From NCBI GenBank assembly GCA_024975835.1, contig GCA_024975835.1_4840.3: a stretch of 18,253 bases of DNA. One strand, given 5' to 3'. The first letter of the stretch is position 1; each line of letters opens with the position of its first letter. Below the pieces are notes generated by a model that searched no databases, was not told the DNA's origin, and worked only from the letters and a program-made list of their open reading frames with translations. The DNA is from a phage. Of this stretch, positions 7,846 through 18,253 are shown piece after piece. The position numbers and the translations under genes were made by a program.

Positions 7846-8685
7846 ATGTCATATATTCTTCATGTGGATTCTGGAACCAAAATTGAAATTGAAGGCAAAG
7901 ACGTTGCTGCTATTCAGGCTGAAATCAAAGAAGCAGGTCTGATCATCGGAAACGTTACCCTGCGCCGTATGGTTGAAGGTGTTCTTCAGGCTGCCAACGG
8001 CTTCGAACTGATTGAAGGTCTGAGCGCCGAAGAGAAGGAAGAAACTCAGCAGGCTCTGGCGCAAGCCCAAGAGCAAGCCCAAGCTGAAGTATCCCTGAAA
8101 GTCGCTGAAACCGTTGATGCTGAAGCACCGATCTCTGCCGATGCATGTGAAGCCCCAGTGTCCGACGCCCCGGTAGACGCGGTTAAAGATGCAGTCAACG
8201 CGGCGCTGGAAGAAGGCAATCAGCCGTCCGACGCGAAAATCGGTTCCTTAGCGTCTTCTATGCTGAAAGAAGCATCGAAGGGTAAGACCCTGACCCCGCA
8301 GGCAGCGCTGGTAGAGCGTAAACGCCGTCACACCAAACGTGAGGAAATGGTTGACTTGGCTCGCGCTTCTAATCACGGTCCGGTCTTGGCGGCGATTGAA
8401 GCTGGTGTTGTCCCCGGCGTGTTCCTGAGCTACGTGAACCCAGACATGCGTTGGTTCCAGTTCCCGGTCACCGAACTGGCTAACCCTGAAAACCTTCACG
8501 CCCGCACCAATACGTATGTCGACGTTGCGCCTATCGTTTCCGGTGGCTGGGGCTTCAGTCTGTACGTGAACGGCAAGTCCTTCACCAAACGTCAGAAGAT
8601 CAAAGAGTCTGATGCTGAGTCTCTGGTTAAGGCGATCAATGAATGGCTTCCACAGGCTCTGGCTGAAGCGAAAGCTGCTGCGTAA
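7846..8685 (+). CDS. Hypothetical early protein (279 aa): N-terminal domain, acidic Ala/Glu/Gln-rich low-complexity linker, C-terminal domain
   Basis: ORF bracketed by the promoter at 7749-7777 and the terminator at 8716-8746; appears GC-richer with host-like codon choice by eye; no recognised family. Confidence 0.65.
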   Translation: MSYILHVDSGTKIEIEGKDVAAIQAEIKEAGLIIGNVTLRRMVEGVLQAANGFELIEGLSAEEKEETQQALAQAQEQAQAEVSLKVAETVDAEAPISADACEAPVSDAPVDAVKDAVNAALEEGNQPSDAKIGSLASSMLKEASKGKTLTPQAALVERKRRHTKREEMVDLARASNHGPVLAAIEAGVVPGVFLSYVNPDMRWFQFPVTELANPENLHARTNTYVDVAPIVSGGWGFSLYVNGKSFTKRQKIKESDAESLVKAINEWLPQALAEAKAAA

Positions 8686-8715
8686 TTTAAGTTCAGAAAC
8701 TGTTCAAAAGATGAA

Positions 8716-8746
8716 GGGGCTGCTATAATAGCAGCTCCTTTTGTTT
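8716..8746 (+). terminator. Rho-independent terminator: stem GGGGCTGCTA / TAGCAGCTCC (one G-U pair), loop TAA, then TTTTGTTT; a TATAAT hexamer (8724-8729) is embedded in the hairpin
   Basis: Read directly; lies between the stop of gene 7846..8685 and ATG 8760. Confidence 0.6.
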
Positions 8747-8759
8747 ATTGGAGCAGTTT

Positions 8760-9419
8760 ATGTCCTACTCCCTGAAGGGGTTGATGAAGCGCCCCGTCCA
8801 CACATTCTTTAAACCACCCGTCGTAAAGGGGATCTACCCAGCACGAGGGCAAATCTACTACGTCAAAGGCTCCAATGGTAGCGGTAAATCCACTGTGCCG
8901 TCTCAGCTGGCGGAGAGGGATCCTCAGGCGTATGTCGTGACCCATAATGGCAAGGTCATGCTGACTGTCTGTCCTTCGTTCAACGTGGTCTGTATCGGTA
9001 AATATGACAAGTCGAAGTCCAAGGGGGTTGATTCCCTGAAGGACACTGAGCAGATGTTGTTCGCGTTGTCTATTGCTGACCAACCAGAATACTTGAAATA
9101 TGATGTGATTTTCGAAGGTATCATTCCATCCACATTATTGAGTTCTTGGATCCCCCGTCTGACACGCCCACCACGTGAATTGGTTGTGCTCTTTATGGAC
9201 ACTCCTCTTGAAACGTGTATCACCCGCGTTAAATCACGTAACGGCGGTGTGGACTTCAATGAAAGTCTGGTGGTCGAAAAGTGGGAAAGAGTTCATGACC
9301 ATCGTCAACGACATAAAGACTTGTTCCCTACGGTAGCTGCGGGTATGATGAAGTCTCACGGCCTAACGGTAGACCAGGCTGTGATGGCATTCCTCTGTCG
9401 TGATTTTGGGAGTATCTGA
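8760..9419 (+). CDS. P-loop kinase-like protein (Walker A GSNGSGKST), 219 aa; candidate nucleotide or DNA kinase
   Basis: Walker A motif in the first 50 residues; start moved from the track's TTG 8748 to ATG 8760 (GGAG 7 nt upstream); stop overlaps the next start as TGATG. Confidence 0.6.
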   Translation: MSYSLKGLMKRPVHTFFKPPVVKGIYPARGQIYYVKGSNGSGKSTVPSQLAERDPQAYVVTHNGKVMLTVCPSFNVVCIGKYDKSKSKGVDSLKDTEQMLFALSIADQPEYLKYDVIFEGIIPSTLLSSWIPRLTRPPRELVVLFMDTPLETCITRVKSRNGGVDFNESLVVEKWERVHDHRQRHKDLFPTVAAGMMKSHGLTVDQAVMAFLCRDFGSI

Positions 9420-10465
9420 TGGAAATCAAAGCAATTAACAACAATGACATGCTGAAGCAGGCTGTCTTGGCTATCCGTGAATTCGGGATCGAATCTGATC
9501 CTGGTAATGCTGAAATCAATACTGATAGCACCCGCTTCCTTGATGGTGTGACTATCACTGTTTCCGATATTCGTGACCGCTGGCTCTCCGTTGAAGGTCG
9601 CAACTCATCGGCTATCGCTGCCATCGGCGAGACCTTCTGGGTGTTGTCAGGCCGCAACGACATAAAGTTCCTGTCACGCGTATTGCCTCGCGCTGCTAAC
9701 TTTTCGGATGATGGGGTAACATGGCGAGCTGCTTATGGTCCGCGTCTGTACGCCCATGGCCAGCTGGATAGCGTTATCAACCGCCTGCGCAAGAACCCAA
9801 ACACTCGTCAGGCGTACCTCACCATCTATGACCCGGCTCTAGATTCGGATGCTGGTCTGGCGAAGTTCAGCGAGAGCGGCGAAGCAAAGACTAAGGACAT
9901 GGTGTGTAACCTGGCTCTGTTGTTCGCCATCGTTGAAGGTCGTCTGAACCTGACGGTCATCAATCGCTCACAGGATGTTCTGTGGGGGATGAGTTCAATC
10001 AACTTCATTGAGTTCTCTATTCTTCAGGAAGTGATTGCTCGGGTGTTAGATGTTGATGTCGGTCAGTACAAGCTATTCTCTAACAATCTTCATTACTACA
10101 ACAATGAAGTCAGCCAGAAGCAGCTGGGCAAGATCACGAAGGACACCAAAGTAGAAGCTGGGTTCATCAACTCCATGATTCACTTCACGAACGTGACCAA
10201 CCAGAACCATATCCGCAATCTGTTCACTGGTGTGCTTCATCACTGTGATATCGGTAGCCCGTGGGAAACTGTGGTTGCTCACCTGAAGGAATACGATGCG
10301 GATCGCGGCCTGATTGTACAGATGGCGTACTGCCTGCACTGCAAATTGAATAACAAGCTCATTAACCTGGACCTGATTCAGGATCATGGCTTGAACACCG
10401 CGCTTACCCATTCTCCGGTTGACCGCAAGATCGTTGATCCTAAGTTCCTGGAAGGTGTAGTATGA
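9419..10465 (+). CDS. Thymidylate-synthase-superfamily enzyme, probable deoxypyrimidine-monophosphate hydroxymethylase (T4 gp42-like), 348 aa with a long C-terminal extension
   Basis: TS-fold motifs in the right order: GETFWVLSGRNDIKFL (TS ELLWFLKG...), GQLDSVINRLRKNPNTRQAYLTIYDP (TS DQL..VI..LK.DP.SRR.I.SAWNP), nucleophile Cys in DMVCNLALLF, and LTVINRSQDVLWG (TS YQRSaDvfLG; T4 gp42 MRSNDVVFG). Confidence 0.75.
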   Translation: MEIKAINNNDMLKQAVLAIREFGIESDPGNAEINTDSTRFLDGVTITVSDIRDRWLSVEGRNSSAIAAIGETFWVLSGRNDIKFLSRVLPRAANFSDDGVTWRAAYGPRLYAHGQLDSVINRLRKNPNTRQAYLTIYDPALDSDAGLAKFSESGEAKTKDMVCNLALLFAIVEGRLNLTVINRSQDVLWGMSSINFIEFSILQEVIARVLDVDVGQYKLFSNNLHYYNNEVSQKQLGKITKDTKVEAGFINSMIHFTNVTNQNHIRNLFTGVLHHCDIGSPWETVVAHLKEYDADRGLIVQMAYCLHCKLNNKLINLDLIQDHGLNTALTHSPVDRKIVDPKFLEGVV

Positions 10466-11031
10466 TGTACCCAAATCTTGAATTCTTTACGGGGCGCAAA
10501 CGCTCCGGTAAGGACTTCTGTTTGGAGTCCCTCATCAGCTATCACCAACTACAGGGTGATATGGACATCCAGCGCCTTTCGTTCTCAGATGAACTGCGCC
10601 GTGTGGCCAACTACATCTACCCATGGCTGCCAGCGGAGGTAGAGGATGCCGTGAAGGACGTTCCTTACGTGCACCCTGATAACCCCAAGGGCTTAACTCC
10701 ACGGCAGATCTGGCTTCATCTAGGCAGCGATACGGGCTTGCGTTACGTACAACCCGATCTGTTCCTGGCATTCTTCAAGCGCTTCCAGCTTCCTCTGGTA
10801 GAGCAGAACCCCCACGTCCATTATATCGTGAGCGATCTGCGTACCCCTCAGGAATATGAATGGGCGCTGAGTACGAAATGTCCTATCACCCGTATTTCAA
10901 AGGCCGACCGTGCTGGTATCATAGAGGACGATATAGAGGCTTTCATTGACCAAATGAAAGTGGACTACGAATTCCTCAATCCATTTGATGGTTGGGAACC
11001 GTTCGTTAAATTCTACGGAGAACGTAAATGA
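10462..11031 (+). CDS. Deoxynucleoside-monophosphate kinase, T4 gp1-like (189 aa)
   Basis: FFTGRKRSGKDFCLESL matches T4 gp1 FLSGVKRSGKDTTADFI (the G-x-x-RSGKD loop); YIVSDLRTPQEYEWA matches gp1 YIVPDTRQDHEMDAA; start overlaps the upstream stop as ATGA. Confidence 0.65.
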   Translation: MMYPNLEFFTGRKRSGKDFCLESLISYHQLQGDMDIQRLSFSDELRRVANYIYPWLPAEVEDAVKDVPYVHPDNPKGLTPRQIWLHLGSDTGLRYVQPDLFLAFFKRFQLPLVEQNPHVHYIVSDLRTPQEYEWALSTKCPITRISKADRAGIIEDDIEAFIDQMKVDYEFLNPFDGWEPFVKFYGERK

Positions 11032-11582
11032 TCACAGCAGGGCATATCAAAAGCCTGCTCGAACTCCAAAAGGCCACCAACGTGGCCTACTTTGGGGAAG
11101 AGTGGAAGAATGTATGGAGTCAGAACGCAGTCATCAACTCCATCTATCGTGAGTGGGCAGAGTTCCTTGATGAAACCACCCGTGACTGGAAGGTCTATGG
11201 CAACGACATCGGGTTTGACCATACGAACGCAGTTTATGAACTGGTGGACGTGGTACACTTCATGTTGTGCTTCATCCTTGTGGACCGCACCAAAGGTGAG
11301 ATCGAAGAAGAATTTGAAGTCCTCAGTAATCGCGAATTCACCCCATCTACTTTGGGTGTTGTAGGGCATCGCAATGTTACGTACCGCCTTGGGCAATTCA
11401 TGAACGATCCTTGCGTTGAGACTCTCATGTTCTTCCTGTCGTCTGCGTGTTCTTATATGGAGATCGACATTGAGACTTACATGCTGGCGCACAAACGCAA
11501 GAACGATCGCAATCGTCTGCGTGCTTCTGGTGGCGCGGATTACGACAAGTCCGCAGAAACCCCTCTGACCCTGGAGTTCTAA
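11028..11582 (+). CDS. All-alpha dNTP pyrophosphatase, T4 gp56 (dCTPase/dUTPase)-like, MazG/dUTPase_2 superfamily (184 aa)
   Basis: AVYELVDVVHFMLCFILVD matches T4 gp56 KFELVDIFHFVLNMFVGLG; start overlaps the upstream stop as ATGA. Confidence 0.55.
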   Translation: MITAGHIKSLLELQKATNVAYFGEEWKNVWSQNAVINSIYREWAEFLDETTRDWKVYGNDIGFDHTNAVYELVDVVHFMLCFILVDRTKGEIEEEFEVLSNREFTPSTLGVVGHRNVTYRLGQFMNDPCVETLMFFLSSACSYMEIDIETYMLAHKRKNDRNRLRASGGADYDKSAETPLTLEF

Positions 11583-12124
11583 TGTTTACAGTCGTCGTTT
11601 CATACCATGCGGAGAACGCTGCTCAGGCATCCTCCAAATTCGCCGAGCACATCATCGGCGGCGGCCATAATGTATTCCTTACTGAATACAACAGGCCTGT
11701 TAAACCGGGCGACGGTCTTTCGGCGACTGTTACGCATAAGATCGCCAGCGAGCAACCAGAGTCTCTGTTCAGAATGATCGAAGAGTATGCCAGTGGTGGT
11801 ATCAAGATACCAGATGAACTGGTAGACGTCTATTTTGAAGGCTCGATCTATTACATCCACGCTATGCCAAAGGATATAACCATTGAACAGATGATGTATA
11901 TCCTGAATATAGCACTGAACACTGCGTGCATCAACCGCACGAACTACAACAATCTGCGCAATATGTACCTAACCGACCGGCATAATGACGCATCGTCACT
12001 TGTTGAGATAATGTCCCTGAAGAGCATCCAAGAGGCGGTTAACATTTTGTCCCAGAAGGTTATGGGTGTAGACTTACTAACGACGATTAACAACAAAGAG
12101 GAAGTGAAATGGCCAGTTCATTAA
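11582..12124 (+). CDS. Hypothetical protein (180 aa) in the position that beta-glucosyltransferase occupies in T4, between the gene-42-like gene and uvsX
   Basis: ORF coupled to its neighbours (TAATG at the start, 16-nt overlap with uvsX); no motif recognised; too short for a GT-B glycosyltransferase. Confidence 0.55.
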   Translation: MFTVVVSYHAENAAQASSKFAEHIIGGGHNVFLTEYNRPVKPGDGLSATVTHKIASEQPESLFRMIEEYASGGIKIPDELVDVYFEGSIYYIHAMPKDITIEQMMYILNIALNTACINRTNYNNLRNMYLTDRHNDASSLVEIMSLKSIQEAVNILSQKVMGVDLLTTINNKEEVKWPVH

Positions 12125-13194
12125 TGGACCGCATGCTGAAGGTTGCTAAGAAACACGATGACCAGGCTTCAGTGCTGTCCCAATCAGACGCTCTGGAACC
12201 GTCTATCATCTGTTCTACTGGTATTCCCCTGATCGACATCGCATGGTCTGGGCGTATTGACGGCGGCCTGATCTCCGGTATCAAGATGATGGTGGGTGAT
12301 TCCCGTACCTTCAAAACGATGTTCGGTCTGGTGGACGTCAAGGCGTACATGGACAAGTTCCCTGATGCTATCTGCGTCTTTGCGGACTCAGAAAAGGGTG
12401 CCAACGCTGATTACTGGACCTCTATGGGCATTGACATGGACCGCGTCCTGTACGTACCGATCGACAACGTTGAACAGACCAAGATCCGATTGCTACAGAT
12501 CCTACAGGAAGTCAAGAAAGGCGACCATGTTATAATCTTCATCGACTCTATCAGCCAACTTCCCTCCACCAAGGAAGTTGAAGATGCGATCAAAGGGAAC
12601 GACACTCAAGACATGACCCGCGCCCGTGCCCTCAACAGCTTCTGGCGTGTCATGACTCCCGAAATCAACAGCAAAAATCTCGTGTGTGTTTGGATCAACT
12701 CCTATTACGATGAGATCGGCAACCAATATGCCGAGCCTAACATCAAAGGCGGCAAACAGGGCTTCTTATCCTCCAACTTGATCTGGTTTATCACCCGTTC
12801 TCAGGTGAAGGAAGACAAAGATCTGCTGGGCTGGAACTTCAACATAAGCATCATGAAAGGCCGCCATGTCAAAGAAAAAGCCAAGCTCCCTGTCACGGTA
12901 CTGTACAACGGTGGTATTGATCGCTGGAGCGGCCTGCTTGAGATCGCTCGTGCTCTGGGTTATGTTGATATGCCGTCTTCCGGCTGGTATGTGCGTACAG
13001 CCAAGGGCGGTTTCGATCCTGAGAAGGAAAAGAAATATCAGAAGCGTCAGATGGGTGATGATTTCTGGTATCCGCTGCTGGAGAATGTCAACTTCGCCGA
13101 TGACGTGAAGAAAATGTTCGGTGTTTCTAACGGTACTGTTATGCCTGCTAACATGCTGGAGCAAATGGACCATGTTATTAACACAAGCGAATAA
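12109..13194 (+). CDS. uvsX: UvsX RecA-like recombinase (361 aa)
   Basis: Collinear with T4 UvsX: MVGDSRTFKTMFGLV vs LAGPSKSFKSNFGL, ICVFADSE vs VCLFYDSE, VIIFIDSI vs VVVFIDSL, DMTRARAL vs DMTRAKTM, YNGGIDRWSGLLEIA vs FDGGIDPYSGLLDMA. Confidence 0.9.
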   Translation: MASSLMDRMLKVAKKHDDQASVLSQSDALEPSIICSTGIPLIDIAWSGRIDGGLISGIKMMVGDSRTFKTMFGLVDVKAYMDKFPDAICVFADSEKGANADYWTSMGIDMDRVLYVPIDNVEQTKIRLLQILQEVKKGDHVIIFIDSISQLPSTKEVEDAIKGNDTQDMTRARALNSFWRVMTPEINSKNLVCVWINSYYDEIGNQYAEPNIKGGKQGFLSSNLIWFITRSQVKEDKDLLGWNFNISIMKGRHVKEKAKLPVTVLYNGGIDRWSGLLEIARALGYVDMPSSGWYVRTAKGGFDPEKEKKYQKRQMGDDFWYPLLENVNFADDVKKMFGVSNGTVMPANMLEQMDHVINTSE

Positions 13195-15789: not shown

Positions 15790-16983
15790 ATGAACGTCAA
15801 AACATTCAATATTCCGATCGACAATGAAGGGTTGGTAGTTGAGCGACTGAAGAAGCTCGAGCGCACTGCCGAAAGGTTGGGTGTTCCGTTTCCGACTGTG
15901 ACTTATGGTGAACCCTTCAAAACCCACACCCGCGACTTCACTGGTGAGATCCTTACTCACTGGTGGAAACCTGTTACTCTCGAAGGCGAAGGCATTGACC
16001 GCCCCGTCTCTTATGGTGGCTGGAAGATCATCGGTCAGTTCAATCACGAATATCCAAAGGTTATTCTTAACCGCCTGTCCGACAACATCAATCCCGACTT
16101 CATCCGTCGCTTCGAGGCAGAGAACGTCTCTTGGTGTCAGCATTGCAATCTAGTCATCCGTCGCAAGAACACGTATGTGATTGAAAATGAGGAAACGCAT
16201 ACCCAGATGCTGATTGGTAGCACCTGTATGCATCATTATGTGCCTCATCAGAAGTCCCTTGACGCGATTATGTCTTACTATCTGGAAATCCAAGAGTTCT
16301 TCATGCCAGACGAGGACGACCCAGAGGGTATATATCGCGTCCAAAATGAGCGCTTCGTCGACACCCACAGTTTCCTGCGCGCATGCTTCCAGGTGATGCT
16401 AGCAGGCGTGGATATCAAGTCTGAACTGTTTGACAAAGTACTGGGCTATGTCCGGTCTCATCAGAAACCAAAAGCAGGTTCCGATGAAGAGTATTTCGTA
16501 AACAAGGCACACGAATACCGTGAAGATGCCGAGTCGGAAATGTACCATATGAAGCTCTTCATCAGTGCGCTGTCCGAATCCAATGAGTTCAATGTCCGCC
16601 TGAAACGCATGTGTGAACCCGGCTATCACCTCATCAAGGATAACAACACAGTCCGCTGGGGTGCCAAGAAGTATTACGATTACATCCATCGTCCTCGTAC
16701 TGACCGCAAGGCGGAGAACAAATGGGTGGGCGAAGTCGGTGAAATGCTGGAAGTGCAAGTCAGATTCGACAAGCGCACCTTCCTCTTCTCCAATGAATAT
16801 GGTGATAGCTACCTGTTTACTTTCAAAACAGCAGAAGGTAATACAATTACCTGGAAGACCTCTTATATGGATACAGAGTTCTTGCAGGGTGATATGATCA
16901 TCCGTGGTCGTGTCAAAGAACTGACTGAGTACAACGGCGTTAAACAAACTCAGGTCACCAGAGCCAAATTGAGGAAGTTATGA
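15790..16983 (+). CDS. Hypothetical protein (about 397 aa) with a central Cys/His cluster (WCQHCNLV ... STCMHHY) and a beta-rich C-terminal region; function unknown
   Basis: Long ORF; start set at ATG 15790 (GAGG 6 nt upstream); in-frame ATG 15778 and the track's TTG 15757 are alternatives; no catalytic motif confidently recognised. Confidence 0.6.
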   Translation: MNVKTFNIPIDNEGLVVERLKKLERTAERLGVPFPTVTYGEPFKTHTRDFTGEILTHWWKPVTLEGEGIDRPVSYGGWKIIGQFNHEYPKVILNRLSDNINPDFIRRFEAENVSWCQHCNLVIRRKNTYVIENEETHTQMLIGSTCMHHYVPHQKSLDAIMSYYLEIQEFFMPDEDDPEGIYRVQNERFVDTHSFLRACFQVMLAGVDIKSELFDKVLGYVRSHQKPKAGSDEEYFVNKAHEYREDAESEMYHMKLFISALSESNEFNVRLKRMCEPGYHLIKDNNTVRWGAKKYYDYIHRPRTDRKAENKWVGEVGEMLEVQVRFDKRTFLFSNEYGDSYLFTFKTAEGNTITWKTSYMDTEFLQGDMIIRGRVKELTEYNGVKQTQVTRAKLRKL

Positions 16984-17093
16984 ATTTGATTGAGTTTGTC
17001 CTGAAGTCGTTCGCCTTTGGTCTGATAGCATGTGGGATGATTACAGCTATGCTTCTCATCATAGCCCTGGTCGTCCCCTTTAAGAGGAAATAG
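16980..17093 (+). CDS. Small hydrophobic single-pass membrane peptide (37 aa), not in the supplied track
   Basis: Hand translation gives MNLIEFVLKSFAFGLIACGMITAMLLIIALVVPFKRK; ATG overlaps the upstream stop as ATGA; stop lies 2 nt before the next gene's ATG. Confidence 0.35.
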   Translation: MNLIEFVLKSFAFGLIACGMITAMLLIIALVVPFKRK

Positions 17094-17095
17094 AG

Positions 17096-17296
17096 ATGAA
17101 ACGTGAAATCATGGATGTGTACGAGCCAGGATCTTGTTGTCCTGGCCATGACAAGTATCCATCCGATACTTACAAGAATCGACGTTCCAAAGCGCAACGC
17201 TCCAAGAGCATTAAGAAGGAGCATCGCCACGCTCGTCGTGTCAAGCGTCTGGGGCTGAAATCTGACCTGAATACCATTACGCGGGAGGACTTTTGA
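17096..17296 (+). CDS. Small, highly basic protein (66 aa) with a GSCCPGH motif
   Basis: ORF with AAGAGGA 7 nt upstream of the ATG; Lys/Arg-rich; stop overlaps the next start as TGATG. Confidence 0.5.
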   Translation: MKREIMDVYEPGSCCPGHDKYPSDTYKNRRSKAQRSKSIKKEHRHARRVKRLGLKSDLNTITREDF

Positions 17297-17508
17297 TGGA
17301 ATGTTCATGCGGAGGGCAGGGCACAAGTGCCTACATGCCATTCACCACTGTGAAGGAAGCCGAAGCCGCTGGATTTGCCGTGGACAAGGCTCCCTGTGTA
17401 ATCGCCACGAAGGATTGCCCGTGCTGTAAGAGGCACTCTCAGGACGTCTTCTACGCCCCTGATGCGCGTCCGGCTACGGTCAATCTGCTCTCACTGATGA
17501 GGAAGTGA
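17296..17508 (+). CDS. Small cysteine-rich protein (70 aa; CSCG ... CPCC), probable metal-binding
   Basis: ORF with GGGAGG 7 nt upstream of ATG 17296; six Cys residues in clustered motifs. Confidence 0.5.
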   Translation: MECSCGGQGTSAYMPFTTVKEAEAAGFAVDKAPCVIATKDCPCCKRHSQDVFYAPDARPATVNLLSLMRK

Positions 17509-17589
17509 CATGCGCAAGTATTTCAACTGGTTGTTCTGTATACCGTCGCTGAGTGCTGAGATTCGTTCCCTGATAATATATTGAAGTCT

Positions 17590-17622
17590 CCAGGGTTATA
17601 ATAGCAGCACATATAACCCTGG
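17590..17622 (+). promoter_or_regulatory. Hairpin with 11-bp perfect stem CCAGGGTTATA / TATAACCCTGG and 11-nt loop; contains TATAAT (17597-17602) and its 3' arm overlaps the ligase ribosome-binding site
   Basis: Read directly; no T-tract follows, so it is not a terminator; shares the 12-mer TATAATAGCAGC with the element at 8724-8735. Confidence 0.4.
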
Positions 17623-17631
17623 AGGCACCAC

Positions 17632-18253
17632 ATGATCCCTATCCTTGAAATAGTCCACCGACTTCGCGAAACCAAAGGCAGCAATGCGAAGAAAGCCGTG
17701 CTGACCGAAGCATTCAAGAACAACCCAGACTTGGCAGACTTCCTGCAGTATGTCTATGACCCAATGACGTCGTTCTATCGGACTGAGTTGAAGCTCAGCG
17801 CGTATCCTCGCATGCTCGTCCGTGAGAAGACTGATGACATCAGCGAAGTCTATGACGTCCTCGACCAGATGGCGCAGCGTCTTGTCGGTGGCCAAAAGGC
17901 TGATGCCCTGTTGGCCTCTGTCGCCCTGAAGATGGATCCCCAATACCACGAACTCATTCAGATGATCCTAGACCGTGATATCAAGGCGGGTATCGCTGAG
18001 AAGGGCATCAACGCTGCATTCAACGCCGCCGGAGGCACTGGACGCCTGATCAACATTCTTCCGTATCATCGTTATGACAACATGACGATTGACCTGCTGA
18101 AGAAGATGGACTTCAAGCGCGGCGTCTACAGCCAGCTGAAGTCAGACGGTATGTTCGCCAACATCATATGTCGGTACAATAAAGAGCCTGAGATTCGCTC
18201 TCGCTCCGGTTCCCTTATCGCAGGTGGTTCGGTTGATAACCTTTCACTGGTGT
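17632..18253 (+). CDS. 30: ATP-dependent DNA ligase, T4 gp30-like; 5' partial, continues beyond the window
   Basis: Hand translation has no stop to the window edge; contains the adenylation motif QLKSDG (T4 ligase QLKADG with active-site Lys); GGAGG 6 nt upstream of the ATG. Confidence 0.8.
   Translation, partial: MIPILEIVHRLRETKGSNAKKAVLTEAFKNNPDLADFLQYVYDPMTSFYRTELKLSAYPRMLVREKTDDISEVYDVLDQMAQRLVGGQKADALLASVALKMDPQYHELIQMILDRDIKAGIAEKGINAAFNAAGGTGRLINILPYHRYDNMTIDLLKKMDFKRGVYSQLKSDGMFANIICRYNKEPEIRSRSGSLIAGGSVDNLSLV

Follow-up and report, generated by a model that had tools for sequence, protein, structure and literature searches.

The kinase 5-HMUDK was predicted by Iyer et al. 2013. It was named by Lee et al. 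2018, who reported that it co-associates with a dUMP hydroxymethyltransferase of the thymidylate synthase (TS) superfamily (PMC5889632). In Salmonella phage Vi01 (ViI) and ViI-like phages, ~40% of T is replaced by 5-(2-aminoethoxy)methyl-dU (5-NeOmdU), and the 5-HMUDK-encoding ViI-like phages in Table 1 of that study include PhiSboM-AG3 (Ag3), SKML-39, and LIMEstone (PMC5889632). The nucleoside analyses covered ViI, CBA6, CBA120, and 1.255.O, the last being a distant Vibrio phage that contained the same 301 Da nucleoside.

The reaction was demonstrated by Lee et al. 2021, in whose hands purified M6 gp54, ATP, and DNA containing 5-hydroxymethyl-dU (5-hmdU) yielded ADP and 5-phosphomethyl-dU (5-PmdU) DNA with addition of one phosphate (PMC8989533). 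The same 418 u product was obtained with ViI gp67, ViI gp243, PhiW-14 gp37, and SP10 gp186, and ViI gp67 transformed 5-hmdU in SP8 genomic DNA to 5-PmdU in vitro (PMC8989533). Label transfer and NcoI protection, both obtained with M6 gp54, placed the phosphate within the polymer (PMC8989533). In ViI, the phosphate is displaced by serine in a reaction of gp247, an aGPT-Pplase2 or amino-acid:DNA transferase, giving O-serinyl-T, which the PLP enzyme gp226 decarboxylates to 5-NeOmdU (PMC8989533). This scheme was restated as current knowledge in a 2026 paper (PMC13458397), and a 2024 review describes the modification genes as conserved across the Ackermannviridae.

The DNA considered here is a stretch of 18,253 nucleotides, hereafter the window, from a member of the Ackermannviridae that falls within the Ag3-like lineage (relatives of Shigella phage Ag3). 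Across its full extent it shares 98.4% identity with both Enterobacter phage fGh-Ecl02 and Salmonella phage vB_CECAV_050, and ~91-93%, varying by segment, with Ag3, SP-9-14, and SW16-7, among other phages.

The kinase gene and its family

The kinase gene and the features that surround it are as follows.

8713..8741, + strand: terminator-like GC-rich hairpin (13-pair stem with 6 GC pairs) and T-rich tail, TGTTTATT; consensus match
8760..9419, + strand: predicted 5-HMUDK of the HMUD1 type, orthologue of ViI gp67, 219 aa; PF18748 and identity to ViI gp67
8868..8894, + strand: Walker A / P-loop segment GSNGSGKST, aa 37-45; read in the kinase sequence
9419..10465, + strand: TS-superfamily protein, probable dUMP hydroxymethyltransferase; PF00303, E value 1.1e-15, and phrog_3676, E value 2.2e-183
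10462..11031, + strand: T4 gp1-like deoxynucleoside monophosphate (dNMP) kinase; phrog_139, E value 1.2e-47
11028..11582, + strand: all-alpha dUTPase_2 / MazG-like NTP pyrophosphohydrolase; PF08761, E value 7.8e-09, and phrog_173, E value 5.4e-40
11582..12124, + strand: Phage ACT-like domain protein, 180 aa; PF24021, E value 1.7e-79, full length, and phrog_3839

The kinase open reading frame has 219 codons and runs on the + strand from an ATG at 8760 to a TGA at 9417-9419. Its product begins with MSYSLKGL, and GGAG, 8-11 nt 5' of the ATG, provides a ribosome-binding site. An in-frame TTG is present upstream, at 8748. The coordinates are considered exact, since the annotated orthologues from ViI and fGh-Ecl02 match the ATG at 8760 and not the TTG. 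An earlier note, made from the sequence alone, had placed both the gene and its GSNGSGKST motif at precisely these positions. The reading frame is a real gene rather than a chance one, given the strength of the Pfam match described below and the presence of homologues in 402 phage records.

In Pfam, the product matches PF18748 (HMUDK_HMUD1, '5-hmdU DNA kinase') with an E value of 1.6e-108 and 361.1 bits, the gathering cut-off being 27 bits. The match is full length, with positions 1-195 of the 196 in the model aligned to residues 14-208. The remaining Pfam matches (AAA_33, ABC_tran, and Zeta_toxin) are sub-threshold and concern the P-loop, and no match to PF18747 (HMUD2) was obtained at E ≤ 0.1. 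Among the PHROGs, phrog_800 is matched with an E value of 3.3e-68. NCBIfam holds no model for the 5-HMUDK family, and none of its kinase models was matched. The comparison with HMMs of 5-hmdU DNA kinase families, which the earlier note had proposed as a check, thus points to that family in both Pfam and PHROGs.

Residues were compared in an alignment of the window kinase, ViI gp67, the Vibrio phage K452 protein, M6 gp54, the kinase domain of the SBSphiC protein (which has the HMUDK_HMUD1 plus HMUDK_hel architecture described for SP10 gp186), and ViI gp243. Invariant in all six are the P-loop residues G37, G40, G42, K43, and T45, the residues P55, G80, Y82, G89, and G120 (FEG motif) beyond the P-loop, and P149, R156, and R160 on the lid side. 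Sequence searches of the PDB, with the kinase alone and with the six-member profile, found no solved relative of 5-HMUDK. The matches returned (ABC transporters, gluconate and guanylate kinases, and T4 polynucleotide kinase, PNK) are at the level of the P-loop only, with the exception of 1qf9, which matches in the lid region. A single-sequence AlphaFold2 model of the kinase was unusable (mean pLDDT 39.6; pTM 0.33).

Based on tblastn, the kinase shares 100%, 94.5%, and 87.7% identity with the corresponding products of vB_CECAV_050, Ag3, and ViI, respectively. The ViI match, with 100% coverage, is Vi01_061c (YP_004327432.1), the protein described as ViI gp67 (PMC8989533). The two proteins differ little in length (220 aa in ViI, 219 aa in the window), and they agree in the Walker A motif and in every family-invariant residue; none of the 27 substitutions falls at an invariant position. 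In ViI, as in the window, the gene lies directly upstream of, and overlaps, the TS-family gene. The order of genes common to the window and ViI is a gene of no assigned function, the kinase, the TS-like gene, dnk, the dUTPase-like gene, and the ACT-like gene, followed by UvsX, a small ORF, and the gp41-type helicase. In Vibrio phage K452, the kinase of which is 46% identical, the same order is found from the kinase through the UvsX-like gene. ViI itself is a Kuttervirus, whereas the window phage belongs to the Ag3-like (Aglimvirinae-type) lineage.

The best characterized 5-HMUDK, gp54 of Pseudomonas phage M6 (YP_001294562), also belongs to PF18748 and has ~30% identity to the window protein over the kinase core. 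The P-loop, the G-x-Y motif, the FEG motif, and the P-x6-R-x3-R lid residues are common to both, although M6 gp54 lacks the N-terminal extension of ~34 residues present in the window kinase. It also differs in its setting, a compact hypermodification cluster of five genes (gp51-55), one of them for a radical SAM enzyme, and in its destination, since it feeds a glycine-derived, C-C-linked product, 5-NedU. The second kinase of ViI, gp243 (YP_004327565; '5-hmdU DNA kinase 2', PF18747 HMUD2), is a P-loop kinase with the same product, 5-PmdU, in vitro. It shares the invariant motif residues with the window kinase, yet the identity is only 22% and the Pfam family is a different one. The gp243 protein has 304 aa and a basic C-terminal tail, and its gene adjoins that of the transferase rather than that of the TS-family protein.

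Taken together, the full-length match to PF18748 and the 87.7% identity to ViI gp67 in the same gene order make it very probable that the gene encodes a 5-HMUDK, orthologous to ViI gp67, which would phosphorylate 5-hmdU within DNA as part of a hypermodification pathway. The earlier note had put this role forward from the position of the gene; it is now supported through homology and orthology instead.

Neighbouring genes and the proposed pathway

The run of genes that begins with the kinase is tightly packed. Successive stops and starts overlap throughout, by 1 nt at both 9419 and 11582, by 4 nt at 10462-10465 and again at 11028-11031, and by 16 nt at 12109-12124, and the run ends with the gene for a UvsX-like recombinase at 13194. 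This arrangement suggests that the genes from the kinase through uvsX are co-expressed. The hairpin at 8713-8741 ends 18 nt before the kinase start; as a terminator-like element, it would close the upstream gene (7846..8685) and mark the 5' boundary of the run. The earlier description of the kinase as standing at the head of a nucleotide module is therefore fair, with the hairpin before it and five overlapping genes after it. The kinase is not, however, the immediate neighbour of the gp1-like dNMP kinase, as had been stated, because the TS-family gene intervenes. A consensus scan of the gap at 8686-8759 revealed no sigma-70-like promoter; transcription of the module presumably relies on read-through or on a promoter specific to the phage. 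Neither the Rfam nor the tRNA scan gave a hit anywhere in the window.

The TS-family protein is 77% identical to Vi01_060c of ViI. Its scores fall well short of all the NCBIfam equivalog cut-offs for thymidylate synthase, which is consistent with, though no proof of, hydroxymethylase chemistry, and it would probably make 5-hmdUMP before replication. The gene for the gp1-like kinase is syntenic with 'dnk' of ViI (Vi01_059c), and this enzyme presumably takes 5-hmdUMP, its likely substrate here, to the diphosphate. By analogy with the dTTPase/dUTPase of 5-hmdU pathways (PMC13458397), the dUTPase-family protein would probably clear dUTP and dTTP. Between the gene for this protein and uvsX lies the ACT-like gene, and a gene occupies the same place in ViI (Vi01_057c) and in Vibrio K452. 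ACT domains usually bind small-molecule effectors, and so the ACT-like protein could regulate the nucleotide module.

The other genes assigned in the window are listed below.

188-994, - strand: baseplate hub gp26-like gene; phrog_150
4845-5789, - strand: tail tube / gp54-like baseplate tube initiator; phrog_3629
5843-6547, + strand: T4 gp2-like DNA end protector
6611-7360, + strand: well-conserved protein; phrog_4253
7846-8685, + strand: well-conserved protein with an acidic Ala/Glu-rich low-complexity centre; phrog_3905
~15790-16983, + strand: well-conserved protein; phrog_2319

Both structural genes on the - strand are embedded among genes for replication, recombination, and nucleotide metabolism on the + strand, a scattered organization of the kind described for Ackermannviridae (2024 review). 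Relative to fGh-Ecl02, two 3-bp indels are found, in the genes at 7846-8685 and 11582-12124. In addition, coordinate offsets indicate that ~589 bp of fGh-Ecl02, located shortly before the DNA ligase gene, are absent from the window (window ~17508-17632 versus ON212266.1 128370-129083); in fGh-Ecl02 this interval holds an ORF of 113 aa (128628-128969). The N-terminus of the DNA ligase begins at 17632 and the gene runs off the end of the window.

In the proposed pathway, the steps before replication would employ the TS-family enzyme for the synthesis of 5-hmdUMP, the gp1-like dNMP kinase to carry 5-hmdUMP towards the triphosphate, and the dUTPase-family pyrophosphatase to trim the competing dUTP and dTTP pools, so that the phage polymerase might put 5-hmdU in place of T. 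After replication, the P-loop kinase would move the gamma-phosphate of ATP to the 5-hydroxymethyl oxygen of 5-hmdU within DNA, and the product, 5-PmdU, would bear a good leaving group. An aGPT-Pplase2 / amino-acid:DNA transferase of the ViI gp247 type, encoded elsewhere, would then replace the phosphate with serine via its side-chain oxygen. Removal of CO2 by a PLP-dependent decarboxylase of the ViI gp226 type would result in 5-NeOmdU on ~40% of thymines, which would block many restriction endonucleases. The two kinases of the module, regarded earlier as redundant, would not be so, because the gp1-like enzyme is expected to act on free nucleotides before replication and the 5-HMUDK on the DNA polymer after it; they thus differ in both substrate and timing.

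No transferase, decarboxylase, or second kinase is encoded within the 18 kb window. For this reason the genome of fGh-Ecl02, the closest complete one, was examined for the later genes of the pathway, and the following orthologues were found.

ViI gp247, serine:DNA transferase: 90% identity; PF18724 ADDT
ViI gp226, PLP decarboxylase: 92% identity; PF00291 PALP, below cut-off
ViI gp160: 79% identity; PF18723
ViI gp243, second kinase: 47% identity; PF18747 HMUD2

From this relative, 98.4% identical to the window, we infer that the later pathway genes would also be present in the window's own genome. Likewise, we infer from sequence that the window kinase would have the activity of ViI gp67 and that the phage DNA would carry 5-NeOmdU. 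This product is predicted because the product-determining enzymes are near-identical to those of ViI and because phage 1.255.O makes the same nucleoside.

It is improbable, in our judgement, that the kinase is a 5-HMUDK whose pathway in the Ag3-like lineage ends in a different nucleoside, by use of another nucleophile or by further tailoring. In favour of such a variant, 5-PmdU is the intermediate for at least five end products, and it is the transferase and not the kinase that decides among them; the literature yielded no nucleoside analysis for any Agtrevirus; and, in the nearest relative, the second kinase shares only 47% identity with ViI gp243 and carries additional sequence at its N-terminus. 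Nevertheless, the transferase and decarboxylase of fGh-Ecl02 share 90% and 92% identity with gp247 and gp226, respectively, and the Vibrio phage 1.255.O, although far more distant, still makes the 301 Da nucleoside. Both points argue for 5-NeOmdU as the end product.

The second kinase of fGh-Ecl02 has features of its own. It is encoded at 8964-10562 on the - strand of the retrieved locus and is annotated as a 'putative homing endonuclease' of 532 aa. The PF18747 HMUD2 domain occupies aa 236-531, after an N-terminal extension of ~235 aa, the start of which, YHYTYRITHVPTGRFYVG, resembles a GIY-YIG motif. Its 47% identity to ViI gp243 compares with 79-92% for the other pathway proteins. The protein may be either a real endonuclease-kinase fusion or the result of two merged ORFs.

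The HMUD1-type gene is linked to the genes for precursor supply and the HMUD2-type gene to that for the transferase. It is possible, if rather doubtful, that the two types of kinase are not redundant but recognize different sequence or replication contexts and jointly set which ~40% of thymines are hypermodified. If true, the HMUD1-type gene of the window would determine the pattern of modification rather than simply activate the base.

Other substrates and the database labels

Nucleotide kinases (PF02223) and T4 PNK (1ltq) have the Walker A P-loop in common with the window kinase and probably also an alpha/beta kinase core with an arginine-bearing lid. They differ from 5-HMUDK in the acceptor, which for the latter is the exocyclic hydroxymethyl group of a base in duplex DNA and not the phosphate of a nucleotide or a 5'-OH end. 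The earlier note had held that the protein could equally be an enzyme like thymidylate or nucleoside kinases, and had named, as evidence against a role in modification, clear homology to one of the standard (d)NMP or polynucleotide kinases.

In favour of a thymidylate or (deoxy)nucleoside-monophosphate kinase with free nucleotides as substrates, e.g., one devoted to 5-hmdUMP as a backup to the gp1-like enzyme, phrog_761, 'thymidylate kinase', is weakly matched (E value 5.6e-07), the orthologue appears under the name 'putative thymidylate kinase' in several GenBank records, and a UMP/CMP kinase is weakly similar in its lid region to the family-alignment profile (1qf9; E value 0.0094). The matches to HMUDK, however, exceed these in strength by more than 60 orders of magnitude, and Thymidylate_kin (PF02223) of Pfam is not matched at E ≤ 0.1. 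A bona fide dNMP kinase is, moreover, already encoded two genes downstream, and the 88%-identical ViI protein was reported to phosphorylate 5-hmdU in SP8 genomic DNA (PMC8989533). A free-nucleotide substrate is thus very unlikely, and the suggestion of an equal claim for such kinases was set aside.

That the protein is a polynucleotide (DNA or RNA end) kinase or, as database labels have it, a small terminase subunit is hardly credible, even though phrog_505 'polynucleotide kinase' is weakly matched (E value 0.0026), the family-alignment profile matches the P-loop of T4 PNK (1ly1 and 1ltq; E values 0.002-0.004) at profile positions 24-59 only, and phrog_800 is itself named 'terminase small subunit': the similarity to PNK is confined to the P-loop, a separate small-subunit gene adjoins that of the large terminase in ViI (Vi01_162c beside Vi01_161c), a gp16-like gene adjoins gp17 in fGh-Ecl02 (46673-47380), the window gene sits in a nucleotide-metabolism run, and M6 gp54 and ViI gp67, although so labelled, are experimentally DNA nucleobase kinases (PMC8989533). 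Set against the E values of 1.6e-108 and 3.3e-68 for the HMUDK families, the two PHROG matches to (d)NMP and polynucleotide kinases are weak and do not amount to the clear homology of which the earlier note had spoken, and 5-HMUDK remains the preferred identification.

The labels themselves vary among records of the family. 'Terminase small subunit' is the RefSeq label of ViI gp67 and of the proteins from Ag3, MK-13, and SKML-39, and even of M6 gp54; the loci concerned include Vi01_061c of ViI at 6001-6663 and M6 gp54 at 16686-17249 (coordinates of the retrieved loci). For the 5-HMUDK family, this label, carried by PHROG 800 and many RefSeq records, is wrong. The records of Det7, PS5, and LPST94 employ 'baseplate hub', a designation that was considered for the window kinase and rejected, while those of Dickeya phages and ChubbyThor employ 'putative thymidylate kinase'. 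Evidence against the widespread terminase label is a useful by-product of the present analysis.

Implications for Ackermannviridae phages

The enzyme is already known, as the close relative of a characterized phage enzyme in a lineage (Ag3) that has already been listed. There is nothing scientifically new in the assignment, since the prediction of the family dates from 2013, its name from 2018, and its biochemical proof from 2021. For the phage itself, the gene would represent the entry enzyme of the thymidine-hypermodification pathway, i.e., the first step to a restriction-resistant modified thymine, and for this reason its DNA is very probably substituted in part with 5-NeOmdU. DNA of this kind is resistant to many restriction enzymes and may have an effect on other defences based on nucleases; it also makes Ackermannviridae phages used for biocontrol harder to clone, sequence, and engineer.
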